Below, in pieces: positions 2,401-46,359 of a DNA stretch of 47,890 nucleotides; the stretch's first letter is position 1; every line of letters starts with the position of its first letter. This DNA comes from a virus. Its lineage: Duplodnaviria > Heunggongvirae > Uroviricota > Caudoviricetes. Below the pieces are notes generated by a model that was not told the DNA's origin, did not search any database, and saw nothing but the letters and a program-made list of their open reading frames with translations. The position numbers and the translations under genes are program-made. Location of the stretch: IMG/VR virus record IMGVR_UViG_2671180896_000002; one strand, 5' to 3'.

Positions 2401-5400
2401 TCAACGAATACTGATGCCGGAAGCGGCTTTTTTGGTCACAATCACCGTACAGTCGGTGATATTGCCTGCCCCCTGATTGCCTTTCTGGAAAATCTTAAAC
2501 TCCAGAGTGACGCTACCACCACCACTAGGCATATCAATAACTGCACTGTAACTACCGGGAATGGCCCCTTTAGTTTCTCTGGATGCGATTAATACGCCGT
2601 TTTTGCGAACTTCAAAACCATAACCCGTGTATCGCGTGCCTCCTGGGTTATTTCCGCTCCCCGGATCGTCATACGCTATACCGTTAAAAATAATGGGCGG
2701 AATAATAATCTGGCGGTCAAAGTTATGATCATCGCTGATGGTGACTGTAACCGTACCGTTTGGTGTTTCCGTGTTACCCCACGTACCGACTTTTTTCGGG
2801 AAGGCTTTTGATACAGCTTTAACGAAATCCCCTCTGACCTGGGTCGCCTCCAGCATGCCCTTAATCGTACAGTTCTGGTTAATCGTGACATTGTTGAGCG
2901 TTCCTGAGTTCGCATTCACACTACCACTGATATCCGCATTTTTAGCGGTCAGCTTTCCGTCTGATGTCAGGGAAAATACCGGAGGACTGCCACCGCTGGT
3001 AATGGTGGGGGCTGTCAGGCGCTTCAGGAACACGTCGTTCATGAATATCTGGTTGCCCTGCGCCACAAACATCGGCGTTTCATTCCCGTTTGCCGGGTCA
3101 ATAAACGCGATACGGTTAGCGGCAACCAGAAACTGGCTCAGCTTGCCTTCCTCCGTGTCCTCCATGCTGAGGCCAATACCCGCGACATAATGTTTGCCGT
3201 CTTTGGTCTGCTCAATTTTGACGCCCCACATGGCATTCCATTTATCGTTAGCGTCCTTCCACTCTTTCGAAAACTCATCCAGTCTGCTGGCGTTATCCTC
3301 CGTCAGATCAACTTTTTCCAGCAGCTCTTTACCGAGATGGGATTCGGTTATCTTGCCTTTGAAAAAATCCAGGTAACCTTCCGCATCATCGCTCGCCCGA
3401 CCGACAGCCTCCACGAATGCCGATTTGCCAACGGTGTTCACACTGCGAACGTAAAAATAATAATCATGGCCCGGTTTGATATTGATACTGGCGGCTATCC
3501 AGTACAGCGCCGTACCAAGATAGCGGGCTGTGGTTTCAACCTGCCTGATATCGGTAATCCGCTTTTCCGAGAACCAGAACTCAAACTGTACCGTCGGGTC
3601 ATAAACAGCAAGATGCGGCGTGGCGGTTATCTGAAAATAGCCCGGCGTCAGCTCAATCCTCGACGGTGCTGCCGGTGCGGCAATCCGGAACGATACCGAC
3701 GCCGGATCACCCTGCTGCCCCCGGGCATTTACCGCCCGGACTGTCAGCCTGTAGTTCCCCAGCGCCAGTTGCGTGAAGCGGTATGTGGTTTCCGTCGTCC
3801 GGGCCGTGCTGACCAGCCGCTCACTGCCGTCGTCCGCTGTTACGGTCAGACGGAGCAGGAAGCTCACGCCCTTCACCACCTTCGGTGTGTCCCATCGAGC
3901 CAGCACCTGGTATTCCCCACTGTCTGCGGTGACTTCTGCGGTCAGGTGCTGCACCGCTGGCGGCGTGACACCATTCACCGTGCCGCTCTGGTCGCCGTCA
4001 AAGTGCGCCCCGTTATCCACGATGGCTTCTTTTTCCGGTACATGCTGCACGGCAGTGATGGCATACGTGCCGTCATCGTTCTCACGGATACTCACACAGC
4101 GGAACAGGCGCTGACGCAACGTCGGCAACTTCAGCCCCCACACACTGTATTCTGCAACGCCGTCAGGAACCCGGTTCACTTTCACCTTAAGTCCGTCGGT
4201 GACGGACTGAACCTCCACGCTGACCGGATTACCACTTCCGTCAACCAGGCTTATCAGCGTGGTACCGGAGGATGGCAGCGTGATTTCACGGTCGAGCGTC
4301 AGCGTCCGGGTCTGGCTGTTCACCGCCAGCACGCGACCACCGGTGCTGATACCGGCATAGTCATCATCGCAGATTTCAATGACATCGCCCGGTACATGGC
4401 GAAGCCCTTCAGCACCCACGCTGAAATCCACGGTCTGCGTTTCCAGCAGTTCCGTTTTAATCAGCCACAGCCCGGCTCGGTGTGCCTGCCCCCGACTGGT
4501 ACAACCAAAGGCATCCATCTTCGTGACATTACGACCGTAACGGGCAATGGCCTGCGTATCTTCAACAAGCTCTGTCGCCGTCTCCCAGCCGTTGTTCGGG
4601 TCAATCCAGTTCACCTCAACGGCATTATGGCGGTCCTTCAGGGCGCTGAAGCTGTAGCGGAACGGCGCGCCATCATCCGGCATCACCACATTACTGCGGT
4701 TATAGGTCCACACCTTATCCGACGGTCGGTCCTGCACGAACGTCAGCGTCTGCCCGTTCCATACCGGCATACAGCGCATCGCCGAGCAGAAATCACTGAG
4801 CACATCCCACGCCTTACGCTGTGTGGTCAGGTACGCATTACAGGTGATGCGCGGCTCCGTGCCGCCAAAGCCGTCCGGCACTGACTGGTCGCAGTACTGG
4901 CCGATGACATACAGCGCCCATTTGTCCACATCCGCCGCACCAAGACGTTTCCCCATGCCGTAGCGTGGATGGCTCAGCATATCCCACAGACACCAGGCCA
5001 TGTTATTGCTGTATGCTGGCTTAAACGTTCCGTCCCAGATACCGCTGTATTGCCGCGTCTGCGGGTTATAGTTCGACGGCACCTGCAGAATACGCCCGCG
5101 CAGATGATAATTACGGCTCACCTGCTGGCTGCCGAACTGCTCCGAATCCACCTGCACGCCGACCAGTGCCGTGTTCGGGTAGCACTGTTTCACATCGATG
5201 ATTTCGGTGTATGACGACCAGAGCGTTTTGTTCTGCAGCTGGTCTGTGGTGCTGTCCGGCGTCATCCTGCGCATCCGGATATTGAACGGGCGCGGCGGCA
5301 GGTTACCCACCACCACCGATGCCAGATACTGTGAGGTGGTTTTGCCTTTAATGGTGATGTCTTTTTCCGTCACCCAGCCACCGTTACGCTGTATCTGAAC

Positions 5401-28200: not shown

Positions 28201-29138
28201 TTTTCCTCACATATGTCATATAGTAAAGGATTATATATACCGTTGTTTTGGACGCTCAAACAGCGAATCAGATCAAATAAAACGCACATTTGTTAACATT
28301 TACACAAAGTCTGCGTGGGATATTCTGAAAGAATATCCATAATGTGGAGAGAATCTATTGAAGTGCATGGTGCCGGGTGCCTCCCGGTGAACAAAATGTT
28401 CGTGATACCTGTCGGCGACAGAAAAGGTTAATGGTATCACCCCACCGCACAGGGGGATTCACCATGCAGGAGTTTTCTTAGCAAACTCACTGCGCGCCCG
28501 GCAACTCCCAACCACATAAAATGCGGAGTTTGTGGTATTTATGCATATAACTCGCAGGAATTATCTTAAAAAACTGATGTCGATCCGGATTAAAAAGAAG
28601 CAGGTCATCATCAGATGACTGGAAAAAAGGAAAACAAAAAATACTCATCATACAGTTTTGATTGCAGGGATGAGCCTGCTATGCACAATATGCAGAATAT
28701 AAGCAAGATAAAAATATGCAGGCATATTATTTCGGGTTTTGTTATTAACACAACCTTTTTAATAATCATTTGGCATACAATAAACCAGCCCAAAAAGAAC
28801 CGCCTAAACAGGCGGTTGGTCAATACAAAGGATGCTTCGTCTTTATTATAGTAATCTGAGGCGTCGGGTGTCTTGTATCAGACAACATATTGTCCCGCTA
28901 AACAGCGAATTACAAACCACCCTGCAATGATCTCTCATCTCATTTTATATGAGTTGACGACATCAGGATAACGCATCATCAGCCCCTGCCAAGAAATATC
29001 AAAACTCCCGCCAGCAATGTGTTATCACAATATTGTAAAAAAAACACAGCACCGAAACTATAACTGGTCTCTGTTATAATTTGGAGCAGAAAGACCAGTT
29101 GCCCAACTAGCAGCATTCTCCCCTGCTTTCCTGACGTA

Positions 29139-32485: not shown

Positions 32486-32641
32486 TTACTCCCCAAGTTC
32501 GTAAGCTGTGAAGACAGCGACCTCCGTCTGGTCGGTTCGGATTCGTACCTCGCAGAGGTCTTTCCTCGTTACCAGTACCGTCACTATAACGGTTAAACAG
32601 ATGACGATCAGGGCGACTAACATCGCCTTTTGCTGCTTCAT
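32486..32641 (-). CDS. hok: Hok/Gef-family type I toxin (small membrane toxin)
   Basis: MKQQKAMLVALIVICLTVIVTVLVTRKDLCEVRIRTDQTEVAVFTAYELGE (51 aa), near-identical in pattern to HokD/RelF and HokC; the supplied ORF extends in frame upstream to 32698. Confidence 0.85.
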   Translation of the reverse strand: MKQQKAMLVALIVICLTVIVTVLVTRKDLCEVRIRTDQTEVAVFTAYELGE

Positions 32642-32970
32642 AGCCTGCTTCTCCTTGCCTTTCGGCACGTAAGAGGCTAACCTACATGTGCAAAGCATGA
32701 AATTGGCCTCAGATTAATGTTAAGCGTCTTGCCGGATGCGTAATGTTAACTGGGGCTTTTCTCTATCTGCCTTTGATGTTCATGCCCGAGGCAGATAGCC
32801 TCAAGTATCCGCAGCTATTTGTCTGCTGTTACCACCTACCTGCGCCAATCACTGACTCTACAAAGATCTATCCGCGATAACATTTTGAGTTTAAGAACTT
32901 TTGCGTACGCACCAAAAGATGCATATACTAGACTAGTCATAGTTCTAATCTGCTTGATTATGGAGTCAGG

Positions 32971-37354: not shown

Positions 37355-38101
37355 TTACTTCGCAATTCCTGGCTGGACGACATTCGGACGCCAGCTCTCC
37401 CAGTTAAAATTCACCCAACGCCCGCCGTTCATGGTCATGCGATCCATAATCCTCTCGCCGAGCAATGGTTTCATGGCCTCATAGTTCAGGTTTGTCAGCA
37501 TTCCCACGCTACGCATCGACGCTGTCCGTCGATCAATAATCTGGTGCAGTACCACCTGCTCGTTTTTCGTCTCGCGCTGAATGCCAATTTCATCAAGAAC
37601 CAGCAGATCCACTTCGCACAGCTCCCGCAAAAATTTTTCGCCTGACTGCCCGTCGTCATAGCTGGCGTGCAGGGCGCTCATAACATCAGCCACGGTAACC
37701 ACAATCACTGTCTGACCGTCTTTCAGCAGGCGATTCCCGATAGCTGCCGCTAAGTGATTCTTCCCGGTACCAGGTTTTCCGCTGAACGCAAAATTTGTAC
37801 ACCCGGTCATCAGTTCATCGGCGATGGATTTCGCCTGGCTTAACGCGTATCGCTGCCCTTCGTTCTGCACCTGGTAATTCGCAAACGAGCATTTGCGGTG
37901 CAACGGCTGGATGCCAGAGCGATTCAGGATTTTTTCCACCCGCAACTGACGATTCAGGCGGTTGATCTCCTCGCAACGTTTCTGGCCTTCAGCAAGTTGC
38001 CACTCGCGCCACTCCGCAACCGTTCTGAATGGGGCGGTTACATGTGGTGGGGTCAGTCTGCGGATACGCTCCAGAACGCCTCCTGTCGCAATATTTTTCA
38101 T
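37355..38101 (-). CDS. ydaV: DnaC-like helicase loader / replication protein (IstB-like AAA+ ATPase)
   Basis: 248-aa ORF with Walker A ([15 protein letters not shown]) and Walker B (LLVLDEIG); same size and position as Rac YdaV. Confidence 0.8.
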
Positions 38102-38107
38102 GGCCTG

Positions 38108-38896
38108 TTACCCCCTGAAGCCTGGCGGGATCGCACTATCCGGTAACGAGACGGTGTTAACCTGTCGGAGTAACGTCTCAGGTCGAACACCTTTCGGCGC
38201 GAACAAGCCCTGGTATTCGTTGGCGATGCTGTGTCGAATCACCTGCTCAGGTGAAAAACCCTGCTGGCGGAATTTTTCCAGCTCCCGTATCGCCCCGTTA
38301 GCGCCCTGCTCCGTTCGAATCGGTTTTCGCAATGCCTGCCTGAACTGAACCCACTCATGCCAGAGTGTTTCCGGCAACCAGTCAGGCAGCTCGATAGCCT
38401 CCGGTTCGAATTTTTTAGACGCTCGTTTTTGGCGAGGGGGATTTAGGGGGAGATAAGTATTTATATCTTCCTCTTTCTCTTCCTCTGGTAACGCTTTTTG
38501 ATCCGTTTTTGTAACGCTGGCAGCGTTACCTTTTCGTTTCAGTTCTCGTATTTTTGTTACTCTCTCGTTTGTAACCGCCCGTTTTTTAGAGCTTTTCCCG
38601 TTATGGCGCTCAAAGTTAGGAAGCGACAACACACCATTAGTTTCGACCAGCCATCCAACCTGAATTAACGCATCAGCAAAACCAGCCATAAAAGTGATGC
38701 GATCTATTGCACTTTTTGTAACGCCGCGAGCGTTACACTCTGCGTTACCGTCTATCATTTGTTGATCCGCCCATGCCCAGAAGCGAATGACTTTCCCTAA
38801 TGCGGCATCTGGATCAATATTCAGAATCTCAGCAAGCCTGAATATTTCCGGCTTATCCGGCGTAATAACTTCGAGCTTTATCCAGTTTGAAGCCAT
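38108..38896 (-). CDS. ydaU: Replication-initiation-region protein, YdaU-like (DUF1376-type), putative O-like function
   Basis: 262-aa ORF immediately upstream of the DnaC-like gene; carries two of three 19-bp palindromes inside its coding sequence; named by Rac synteny. Confidence 0.55.
   Translation of the reverse strand: MASNWIKLEVITPDKPEIFRLAEILNIDPDAALGKVIRFWAWADQQMIDGNAECNARGVTKSAIDRITFMAGFADALIQVGWLVETNGVLSLPNFERHNGKSSKKRAVTNERVTKIRELKRKGNAASVTKTDQKALPEEEKEEDINTYLPLNPPRQKRASKKFEPEAIELPDWLPETLWHEWVQFRQALRKPIRTEQGANGAIRELEKFRQQGFSPEQVIRHSIANEYQGLFAPKGVRPETLLRQVNTVSLPDSAIPPGFRG
38511..38529. repeat. 19-bp palindrome GTAACGC-TGGCA-GCGTTAC (copy 1 of 3)
   Basis: Perfect 7-bp inverted arms with 5-bp spacer, inside ydaU-like gene. 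Confidence 0.8.
38718..38736. repeat. 19-bp palindrome GTAACGC-CGCGA-GCGTTAC (copy 2 of 3)
   Basis: Same arms as copy 1, 207 bp away; an extra GCGTTAC half-site follows at 38742-38748. Confidence 0.8.
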
Positions 38897-38909
38897 TTGT
38901 TTTCACCTT

Positions 38910-38928
38910 GTAACGCTCGCAGCGTTAC
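38910..38928. repeat. 19-bp palindrome GTAACGC-TCGCA-GCGTTAC (copy 3 of 3)
   Basis: Same arms, 14 bp upstream of the ydaU-like start codon in the ydaT-ydaU intergenic region. Confidence 0.8.
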
Positions 38929-38973
38929 ATTTAACTGATACCGAACAAAACAGTTCGGTACGATTAATTTCAA

Positions 38974-39396
38974 TCAATGCACTACGACAGAATCGCTAGG
39001 AGAACCGCCGCCGCTGAAATGTGCTTTACGGTAAACGGCCTGGACTGCATCATCATGCGCATCAATTGCCGTACTCAGTGCATCCTGTGCCGCCAGTAAT
39101 GCACGGCGTTCCAGGGTATCGAAGATGCAGAGTCGGTGACGCAGCTCGCGAGGAAGAATTGCCAGAACCGCAGGGATCAGTTTCTGAATTTTTTCCCTTT
39201 GCGCATTCGTTTCACCTTTCAACCAACGATGATAGATATTCTGCTGATTGTTCCAGTCCTTGCCTGGTACCAGGGGCAATTCGCCGCCCCCCTGGCGCAG
39301 ATATTCTTCAGTAATTGCGTTAGCGACCCACGCCTGCCCTTTTTCGGCTGCCAGGGCTAACAACACTGATTCGATGTGCTCATGCTTGATTTTCAT
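38974..39396 (-). CDS. ydaT: YdaT-like protein (Rac immunity-region protein, reported toxic partner of YdaS)
   Basis: 140-aa ORF, 4-nt overlap with the upstream Cro-like gene; size and position match Rac YdaT. Confidence 0.6.
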   Translation of the reverse strand: MKIKHEHIESVLLALAAEKGQAWVANAITEEYLRQGGGELPLVPGKDWNNQQNIYHRWLKGETNAQREKIQKLIPAVLAILPRELRHRLCIFDTLERRALLAAQDALSTAIDAHDDAVQAVYRKAHFSGGGSPSDSVVVH

Positions 39397-39726: not shown

Positions 39727-40146
39727 ATGGTTCATGAAGATAAAGCGCGTAAAGAGTTCGCCAGTAGGCTTGCGCTAGCCTGTGAAAACGCTGGTTATGA
39801 ACAACATGGAAGGCAGGCAGAAATTGCCCGTCGAATGAAATTAACACCAAAAGCGGTTAGCAAATGGTTTAATGGTGAAACAATTCCTCGCCGAGAGAAA
39901 TTAAGGGAATTAGCAACACTCATTGGAACAACACCAACCTATCTTTTGGGAGAGGATACAGAAGAAAGTGGACAGATACGTTTCTATCAGGAGTTAAATC
40001 CAAGACAAAAAATCATCATTGACCTTCTGGACGAGCTCCCTGACAGTGAGACAGATGAACTTTTAAAAACTCTTGAGGAGAAAAAACAGAAGTACAATGC
40101 AATTTACGAAGAGTTAGCACGAAAGAAAAAACAAAAAGCCTCTTAA
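39727..40146 (+). CDS. racR: Prophage repressor, RacR-like (HTH; no obvious C-terminal peptidase domain)
   Basis: 139-aa ORF with HTH (RQAEIARRMKLTPKAVSKWFNGETIP), divergent from the cro-like gene, no SD; position equivalent to Rac racR. Confidence 0.6.
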   Translation: MVHEDKARKEFASRLALACENAGYEQHGRQAEIARRMKLTPKAVSKWFNGETIPRREKLRELATLIGTTPTYLLGEDTEESGQIRFYQELNPRQKIIIDLLDELPDSETDELLKTLEEKKQKYNAIYEELARKKKQKAS

Positions 40147-45962: not shown

Positions 45963-46157
45963 ATGAGATATGACAATGTTAAACCATGTCCATTTTGTGG
46001 TTGTCCATCAGTAACGGTGAAAGCCATTTCAGGATATTACCGAGCGAAGTGTAACGGATGCGAATCCCGAACCGGTTATGGTGGAAGTGAAAAAGAAGCA
46101 CTCGAAAGATGGAATAAACGAACCACTGGAAATAATAATGGAGGTGTTCATGTATAA
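45963..46157 (+). CDS. ralR: Restriction alleviation protein Lar/RalR (type I TA toxin, Zn-finger DNase)
   Basis: 64 aa MRYDNVKPCPFCGCPSVTVKAISGYYRAKCNGCESRTGYGGSEKEALERWNKRTTGNNNGGVHV with CxxC...CxxC. Confidence 0.85.
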   Translation: MRYDNVKPCPFCGCPSVTVKAISGYYRAKCNGCESRTGYGGSEKEALERWNKRTTGNNNGGVHV

Positions 46158-46359
46158 AATTACCGCCACTATTGAAAAGGAAGGTGGCACTCCTACTAAC
46201 TGGACAAGATATTCAAAATCTAAACTAACGAAATCAGAATGCGAAAAAATGCTCTCAGGTAAAAAAGAAGCAGGCGTTTCCAGAGAGCAGAAAGTAAAAC
46301 TGATAAATTTTAATTGCGAGAAACTTCAGTCCTCGAGAATTGCATTGTATTCAAATTAA
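46150..46359 (+). CDS. ydaC: YdaC-like small protein
   Basis: 69 aa MYKITATIEKEGGTPTNWTRYSKSKLTKSECEKMLSGKKEAGVSREQKVKLINFNCEKLQSSRIALYSN; ATG overlaps ralR end. Confidence 0.75.
   Translation: MYKITATIEKEGGTPTNWTRYSKSKLTKSECEKMLSGKKEAGVSREQKVKLINFNCEKLQSSRIALYSN

Follow-up and report, generated by a model that had tools for sequence, protein, structure and literature searches.

A predicted replication origin of phased half-site arrays inside the initiator gene of a Rac-type prophage

Introduction

What reads a 19-bp palindrome that occurs three times in and just upstream of a phage replication gene, and what is it for? We address this question in a stretch of virus DNA (Caudoviricetes) of 47,890 bp, all of which was analysed and which we call the window. 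A preliminary description had likened the repeats to those of phage lambda and suggested that they bind the replication initiator, as an origin embedded in the initiator gene, or else bind another regulator. The lambda origin lies in mid-O and combines inverted-repeat iterons with an AT-rich tract; extra iterons, as in Stx phages, insert residues into the O protein (PMC7466680). For the Rac prophage, an active origin named oriJ has been reported (PMC3945230).

The initiator locus

The repeats lie in and beside a minus-strand gene for a putative initiator, in which an acidic linker joins an N-domain to a C-domain. The gene, its domains and its neighbours are as follows:

38108..38896, minus strand: initiator gene, 262 aa
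38531-38896, minus strand: N-domain, winged-helix-like, aa 1-122
38111-38389, minus strand: predicted DnaT-like C-domain, aa 170-262
37355..38101, minus strand: ydaV, DnaC-like helicase loader (Pfam IstB_IS21 and Bac_DnaA; PHROG 50 "DnaC-like helicase loader")
38974-39396, minus strand: ydaT
39727-40146, plus strand: RacR-like repressor gene, facing a Cro-like gene

A DUF1627 gene on the minus strand belongs to the same neighbourhood. The ydaV product is the presumed partner of the initiator C-domain. A 100%-identical E. coli genome contains a Rac-type prophage that is fairly complete and lies at ttcA; its annotation of the 262-aa gene is only "hypothetical protein" (RefSeq). DNA similar to the initiator locus is present in 2,219 of 5,426 complete E. 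coli genomes, with at least 80% of the locus covered in 677.

Palindromes in the window

Using an exact-match scan of the 47,890-bp window, we find perfect copies of GTAACGC-N5-GCGTTAC at 38511-38529, 38718-38736 and 38910-38928, and no further copy in the window even when 2 mismatches are allowed. Dinucleotide shuffles give a chance expectation of 0.06 palindromes, and 3 copies were reached in 0/100 shuffles. The preliminary description had reported three perfect palindromes at these positions, far above chance, and both statements hold. In coding orientation the copies start at -31, +161 and +368 of the initiator gene, whose ATG ends at 38896. The first of them stands outside the coding sequence:

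38910..38928: upstream palindrome GTAACGC-tcgca-GCGTTAC, -31 to -13 relative to the initiator ATG, exact match

It is directly adjoined by an AAGGTG ribosome-binding site.

Beyond the palindromes, exact 7-mer half-sites occur at 38488-38494 (GTAACGC) and 38742-38748 (GCGTTAC). Three additional half-sites had been proposed earlier. The one at 38742 is exact, and the one at 38488 is real as GTAACGC, but the form given for it, GGTAACGC, is one base off. The third, TTGTAACC near 38568, was rejected as it has the GTAAC core alone (5/7), which is not significant by itself.

The preliminary description had also named a dispersed, REP-like host repeat as a finding that would speak against initiator binding. 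In the window outside 38488-38928 there are 5 exact half-sites, against a chance expectation of ~5.8, and therefore the motif is not a dispersed repeat of this kind. We rejected a REP/BIME-like element on further grounds: there is no extra palindrome in the 47.9 kb, no GTAACGC or GCGTTAC half-site in 6 kb of K-12 Rac, and at least 84% of the occurrences in viral contigs fall in the initiator gene family.

Phased arrays of half-sites

A half-site scan places both internal palindromes within larger arrays:

38718..38748: array 1, palindrome 38718-38736 plus direct half-site 38742-38748, order -> -> <-
38488..38529: array 2 (the linker array), palindrome 38511-38529 plus half-site 38488-38494

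The extra half-site of array 1 is 12 bp from the palindrome arm. This array codes for the N-domain loop GNAECNARGVT (aa 50-60), which has low pLDDT in both structure models, and the extra half-site amounts to a 12-nt, 4-aa insertion in that low-confidence loop. Array 2 codes for the linker GNAASVTKTDQKALP, and its half-site at 38488-38494 sits 23 bp from the inner palindrome arm. The complete half-site map of the window is F-31 R-19; F149 F161 R173; F368 R380 R403. Across 48 non-redundant lineages, the distances between half-sites have peaks at 12 bp (159 pairs) and 11 bp (35) and harmonics at 23-24 bp (125) and 33-36 bp (96), and the usual order is -> -> <- <-, as in the full array of lineage L019 (GTAACGC aaaaa GTAACGC aacaa GCGTTAC aaaaa GCGTTAC). 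The spacer prefers T at position 1 and A at position 5, with the consensus GTAACGCTnnnAGCGTTAC. In these phased arrays the 7-bp half-sites are 11-12 bp apart, and the palindromes form the core. Distances from array to array are 192 and 207 bp in the window and 195-264 bp in relatives; we looked for a fixed helical phasing between arrays and found none over distances of 195-264 bp.

This arrangement bears on the proposal that the sites act as RNA hairpins in the operon mRNA, where they would control translation, stability or processing and might be bound by the initiator. Every site is part of the coding-strand transcript, the upstream one folds into a stable hairpin just before the ribosome-binding site (z = -4.1, intergenic RNA), and the RNA-binding winged-helix proteins SelB and Roquin are among the weak fold hits of the N-domain. 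However, -> -> <- arrays and unpaired half-sites 11-12 bp apart cannot form hairpins. The stem sequence, beyond mere pairing, is invariant across phyla while the loop is free to vary, and among sites with a single mismatch 13/15 break pairing and 2/15 give G-U, no better than the 17% from random substitution. We therefore regard an RNA function as very unlikely.

Several variations on the arrays were seen. A GATC (Dam) site at 38500-38503 lies within a degenerate inner half-site of the linker array, and GATC is found at the equivalent place in several enterobacterial lineages (L007, L009, L011, L149 and L155); it could link the array to Dam/SeqA. A distant family member from Brevifollis gellanilyticus (L028) has no GTAACGC palindrome at the usual linker position. 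The linker of its initiator contains three tandem copies of a 12-bp unit, AGCGCTGAAGAG, and then a further AGCGCT (+505 to +546), which may be a different type of iteron. Two viral loci of class A have an extra perfect GTAACGC-N5-GCGTTAC ~4.9 kb downstream of the initiator start (positions 161, 380, 4857 and 161, 380, 4938), which could either act as a distal site or have arisen by chance.

Distribution across lineages

The loci of relatives were gathered by DNA and protein pattern scans. Identical arms occupy the same places in the gene in 10 genera of Enterobacterales (Rouxiella, Erwinia, Mixta, Serratia, Rahnella, Winslowiella, Yersinia, Pectobacterium, Samsonia and Pantoea) and also in Verrucomicrobia, Planctomycetota and Mesorhizobium MAGs. 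They are unchanged at N-domain identities down to 35-45%, and the spacers vary freely. The preliminary description had suggested a check of conservation among Rac-like prophages; the arms are kept from E. coli to Verrucomicrobia, and K-12 Rac is without the motif. Both internal arrays occur in nearly all lineages. Of the three sites the upstream one is conserved least, with an equivalent (-31 to -43) in 10 of 48 non-redundant lineages.

In a reverse test, the sole criterion for retrieving viral loci was the presence of two palindromes at a distance of 194-224 bp. The N-domain is encoded in all 120 of 120 such loci (35-100% identity), and the sites lie at +149 to +161 and +338 to +392. Single-palindrome occurrences on viral contigs, taken as an arbitrary sample, lie inside the initiator gene family in at least 101 of 120 cases (at least 84%). 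Phages that carry the N-domain include epsilon15, SPN1S, TL-2011b and Xanthomonas CP2.

Signs of selection on the DNA itself

For a test of synonymous sites we used 26 loci picked purely by protein or nucleotide similarity, blind to the motif. Third codon positions within the arms are 0.95-1.00 conserved, compared with a median of 0.56 at other conserved codons (Mann-Whitney p = 6e-5). Phages TL-2011b, BUCT554 and ZX5 and a Klebsiella prophage, whose initiator genes have ~66-70% nucleotide identity to that of the window, have perfect palindromes at +149 and +358, in which the arms are identical and the spacers differ. In the window the linker site falls in frame 1 (GNAASVT); TL-2011b, BUCT554 and the Klebsiella phage read it in frame 0 (VTPTALQ and similar). 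That the linker DNA is kept while peptide and frame differ argues for selection on DNA, not protein, and from these comparisons we conclude that selection acts on the DNA of the sites. Across 137 family members (alignment A2), the linker has the protein consensus NAxSVTxALPxxEKRREE, which is the translation of the palindrome, the last half-site GCGTTACC and the polypurine tract described below. This apparent protein conservation is probably caused by the DNA.

The same data weigh on the view that the palindromes have no function and are a by-product of the repeated peptide GNAxSVT or of chance. In its favour, both internal sites of the window are in the same frame and encode NA-x-x-VT. Yet the chance expectation is 0.06, one site is non-coding, related phages read the linker site in another frame with another peptide, and the synonymous positions are frozen (p = 6e-5). 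We give this view next to no credence.

The initiator protein

The window protein has no match to any Pfam family at E <= 10, and none was found for the N-domain in 137 relatives. Nevertheless the N-domain is common: it occurs in 8,579 clusters at 50% identity (E <= 1e-3) and is always N-terminal. An AF2 model built with 137 sequences (pLDDT 80.5) shows four helices, then a beta-hairpin and then a basic helix. By weak structure matches, the fold resembles winged-helix DNA binders, among them DnaD-NTD, ORC2 and a plasmid initiator. The C-domain (aa 170-262) aligns weakly to the ssDNA-binding C-domain of DnaT (2ru8, E = 1.6e-4; 9zbt, E = 5.9e-4). For the Pfam family DnaT (PF17948) the window protein is under threshold and relatives with the same N-domain pass, and the epsilon15 homolog is likewise annotated as DnaT-like. 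Based on these alignments, we predict that the C-domain is DnaT-like.

A comparison with the Rac prophage of E. coli K-12 is informative about the N-domain. The C-terminal half of K-12 YdaU has 81% identity over 124 aa to the window initiator, with the last 65 aa identical, and the BLASTP alignment of the two proteins is restricted to aa 139-262. No homology between the window N-domain and the DUF1376 domain of YdaU is detectable (hhalign probability 0.2%), nor does the window protein have a DUF1376 match. The preliminary description had called the gene ydaU-like; the label suits the C-terminal half and the gene order, which match K-12, and does not suit the N-domain, which is different and belongs to no Pfam family. 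K-12 Rac thus has the appearance of a natural domain swap, with the same C-half and neighbours, a DUF1376 N-domain and no motif.

The gene is itself a mosaic: window positions 38108-38480 align with positions 3090-3477 of the K-12 MG1655 locus (L115), and the junction falls close to a PLNPP motif that lies immediately downstream of the predicted unwinding tract. Modules may have been joined by recombination in this origin/linker region.

The candidate reader of the sites

We compared gene content in 24 diverse loci. The initiator gene is the only gene common to all of them; YdaT-like and RacR-like genes are present in 12-13. This addresses the possibility that another factor, such as YdaT, RacR, YdaS or a host protein, binds the sites. 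In favour of YdaT, it is a DNA-binding regulator encoded directly upstream, and its relatives bind inverted repeats (PMC11014345). Against this, the motif is present in loci without YdaT-like, RacR-like or YdaS-like genes, and K-12 Rac has YdaT, RacR and YdaS but no motif. A host reader is disfavoured by one motif across hosts of different phyla and by different motif classes in phages of one host species. Binding by any of these factors is, in our estimation, improbable to a high degree. The suggestion in the preliminary description that RacR or another regulator reads the sites is accordingly disfavoured, as the motif persists in loci without RacR-like and YdaT-like genes.

Changes of motif point in the same direction. 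The N-domains of the epsilon15, phiPSA1 and RPZH6 type are diverged (33-36% identity), and these phages have arrays of GTCCGC-N7-GCGGAC at +66 and at +342 to +366; the half-site map of epsilon15 is F55 F66 R79 R101; F334 F345 R358 R369. Both GTCCGC dyads are present in 71/80 epsilon15-type loci retrieved by protein. In Ralstonia phage Raharianne the sites are GTAGACG-N6-CGTCTAC, at +154 and +370. All copies in an array set have switched together, and therefore the reader should be a trans-acting factor with changed specificity. Phages of a single host species include two motif classes, and a single class extends over several phyla, so the reader should be phage-encoded. Linkage accounts for part of the co-inheritance of sites and N-domain that the K-12 swap and the reverse test show, because two of the three sites lie inside the DNA that codes for the domain or the linker. 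For this reason the argument rests more on the synonymous-site, frame and concerted class-switch evidence than on co-occurrence. We also observed a gene for a C-5 cytosine DNA methyltransferase directly upstream of the initiator gene, and overlapping it, in epsilon15-like phages (L236) and Vibrio phages.

A low-stability tract beside the linker array

The linker array is followed by a tract of unusual composition:

38464..38486, minus strand: polypurine tract AGAGGAAGAGAAAGAGGAAGATA (coding strand), beginning 2 nt past the last half-site
38452..38491: least stable 40-bp segment of the gene region, a candidate DNA-unwinding element (nearest-neighbour free energy -44.9 versus a mean of -54.6 kcal/mol)

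The polypurine tract is the longest purine run of the gene and has the same position, immediately beyond the final half-site of the linker array, in ~45 of 54 lineages. The median length of the longest purine run is 23 nt, compared with a shuffle mean of 14 and a 95th percentile of 19. The tract is translated in all three frames (PEEEEEE, PEKRREEK and REEKRRE). Together with a subsequent TATAAA-like patch it forms the least stable 40-mer in 37/54 lineages, and in 37/54 lineages the least stable 40-mer begins at +370 to +470. The GC minimum, 0.35, is at 38450-38509. A conserved low-stability tract therefore lies directly after the linker array.

A candidate origin within the initiator gene

Based on these data, we propose that the three arrays and the low-stability tract probably constitute the replication origin of this Rac-type prophage, and that the N-domain, fused to the DnaT-like C-domain, would bind its own coding DNA much as lambda O does. 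Initiator-binding sites that form an origin inside the initiator gene, the lambda analogy of the preliminary description, are the best-supported reading of the conservation of the DNA across phyla and frames, the co-variation of sites and N-domain, the lack of any other shared gene and the adjacent low-stability polypurine/AT tract. The palindromes would be the high-affinity cores of the arrays, read by the winged-helix-like N-domain that the same DNA encodes. In the mechanism that we envisage, derepression of RacR would lead to transcription of the ydaS-ydaT-initiator-ydaV operon, and dimers or oligomers of the initiator would fill the arrays at -31, +161 and +368. The resulting nucleoprotein complex would destabilise the adjoining low-stability tract, and the DnaT-like C-domain and the DnaC-like YdaV would bring host DnaB to the opened DNA. 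Protein binding, unwinding, helicase loading and origin activity are all inferred from evidence that is strong but purely comparative. Autoregulation may be a further role of the upstream site, which adjoins the ribosome-binding site.

The main competitor is that the arrays are operators only, at which the binding of the initiator or its N-domain would repress or roadblock transcription of the initiator gene, possibly through loops between sites ~200 bp apart, with the origin elsewhere. All the protein-binding evidence fits this equally well. The upstream palindrome, at -31 to -13, abuts the ribosome-binding site, distances of 190-230 bp are usual in repression loops, and Rep dimers of iteron plasmids use inverted repeats as operators. 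An operator-loop function is also plausible because the arrays, unlike the compact lambda iterons, are ~190-230 bp apart without fixed helical phasing. However, the upstream site is missing in many lineages whereas the internal arrays are nearly universal. A consensus promoter scan detects no sigma-70-like promoter near the upstream palindrome, a result with no bearing on origin function, and so the site has no promoter-like element beside it. In addition, an operator leaves unexplained the polypurine/low-stability tract that follows the linker array independently of frame. We consider an operator role without an origin unlikely; operator and origin functions are not mutually exclusive.

Comparison with known systems

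The predicted origin resembles the lambda ori/O system in lying in the initiator's own gene, at the boundary of an N-domain for DNA binding and a C-domain for recruitment, both functions being predicted for the window protein. In both, repeated sites of ~19 bp, each an inverted repeat, are within the initiator coding sequence, with an easily unwound AT-rich tract beside them, and the residues that O gains via iterons are comparable to the 12-nt, 4-aa extra half-site of the window gene. There are also clear differences. The window N-domain has no detectable similarity to Phage_rep_O or any other Pfam family, and its repeat unit is a 7-bp half-site at 11-12 bp spacing. Lambda has 4-6 tandem, contiguous iterons in ~100-150 bp, whereas the window has three separate arrays ~200 bp apart, and the window protein has a DnaT-like C-domain with a DnaC-like loader as its partner where the partner in lambda is P. 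The principle of an origin inside an initiator gene is thus already known from lambda and would here be extended to a new family. The origin of phage SPP1 likewise lies within the gene of its replisome organiser, G38P. The N-terminal winged-helix domains of DnaD-type proteins and phage replisome organisers show no sequence similarity to the window N-domain and score low against it in structure.

The K-12 Rac prophage shares with the window its prophage type, the attachment site ttcA and the gene order racR, ydaS, ydaT, initiator, ydaV, ydaW, and differs in its DUF1376 N-domain and in having no GTAACGC sites. Because K-12 Rac is without half-sites, oriJ, whatever its nature, uses different sites. 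In iteron plasmids such as the pPS10, R6K and F families, a winged-helix Rep protein binds repeats about one helical turn apart beside a DNA-unwinding element, and inverted arrangements of half-sites can be the autoregulatory operator. The locus described here is similar in its winged-helix-like initiator, its repeats about one turn apart and the predicted unwinding element that adjoins them. E. coli DnaT, to whose C-terminal domain that of the window initiator aligns, lacks a domain for sequence-specific origin binding and works in PriA-dependent restart; in the window initiator a DnaT-like module is fused to a putative site-specific N-domain.

In the literature that we searched, we found no published origin for any member of this initiator family. 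The family, its recognition sequence, the dispersed phased arrays, the candidate polypurine unwinding tract and the specificity classes appear to be undescribed there. Although the initiator is "hypothetical protein" in RefSeq and lacks a Pfam family, there are ~8,600 clusters of the N-domain. For this family our analysis names a concrete recognition sequence, gives base-pair coordinates for a predicted origin, proposes an unwinding element and identifies natural switches of specificity, and it offers a clear example of regulatory DNA that constrains protein sequence. A broader model, which we put forward tentatively and with more doubt than confidence, is that these proteins are modular phage initiators found across phyla, in which a swappable winged-helix-like reader co-evolves with half-site arrays in its own codons. 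There would be at least 3 specificity classes (GTAACGC, GTCCGC and GTAGAC cores). The role of the DnaT-like C-domain would be to capture the purine-rich strand in the unwinding tract and to load DnaB without the help of DnaA or PriA. If true, the specificity classes would define orthogonal groups of replicons, which would let related prophages coexist and could be used as orthogonal origins.

Other features of the window

The intergenic region between ydaT and the initiator gene contains a second kind of perfect palindrome, TACCGAAC-N6-GTTCGGTA at 38939-38960, which is unique in the window. In the minus-strand transcript it forms a strong hairpin with no T-run, and it might serve as a YdaT-type operator or function at the RNA level. 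The "terminator-like" hits from the promoter-scan analysis are all on the non-coding strand. There are no tRNA genes in the window. Rfam matches above the gathering score, all on the minus strand, are the RalA antitoxin sRNA (46156-46334), the STnc100 sRNA (28311-28497) and the sok antitoxin RNA (32636-32810), which in a related genome adjoins a Hok/Gef gene.
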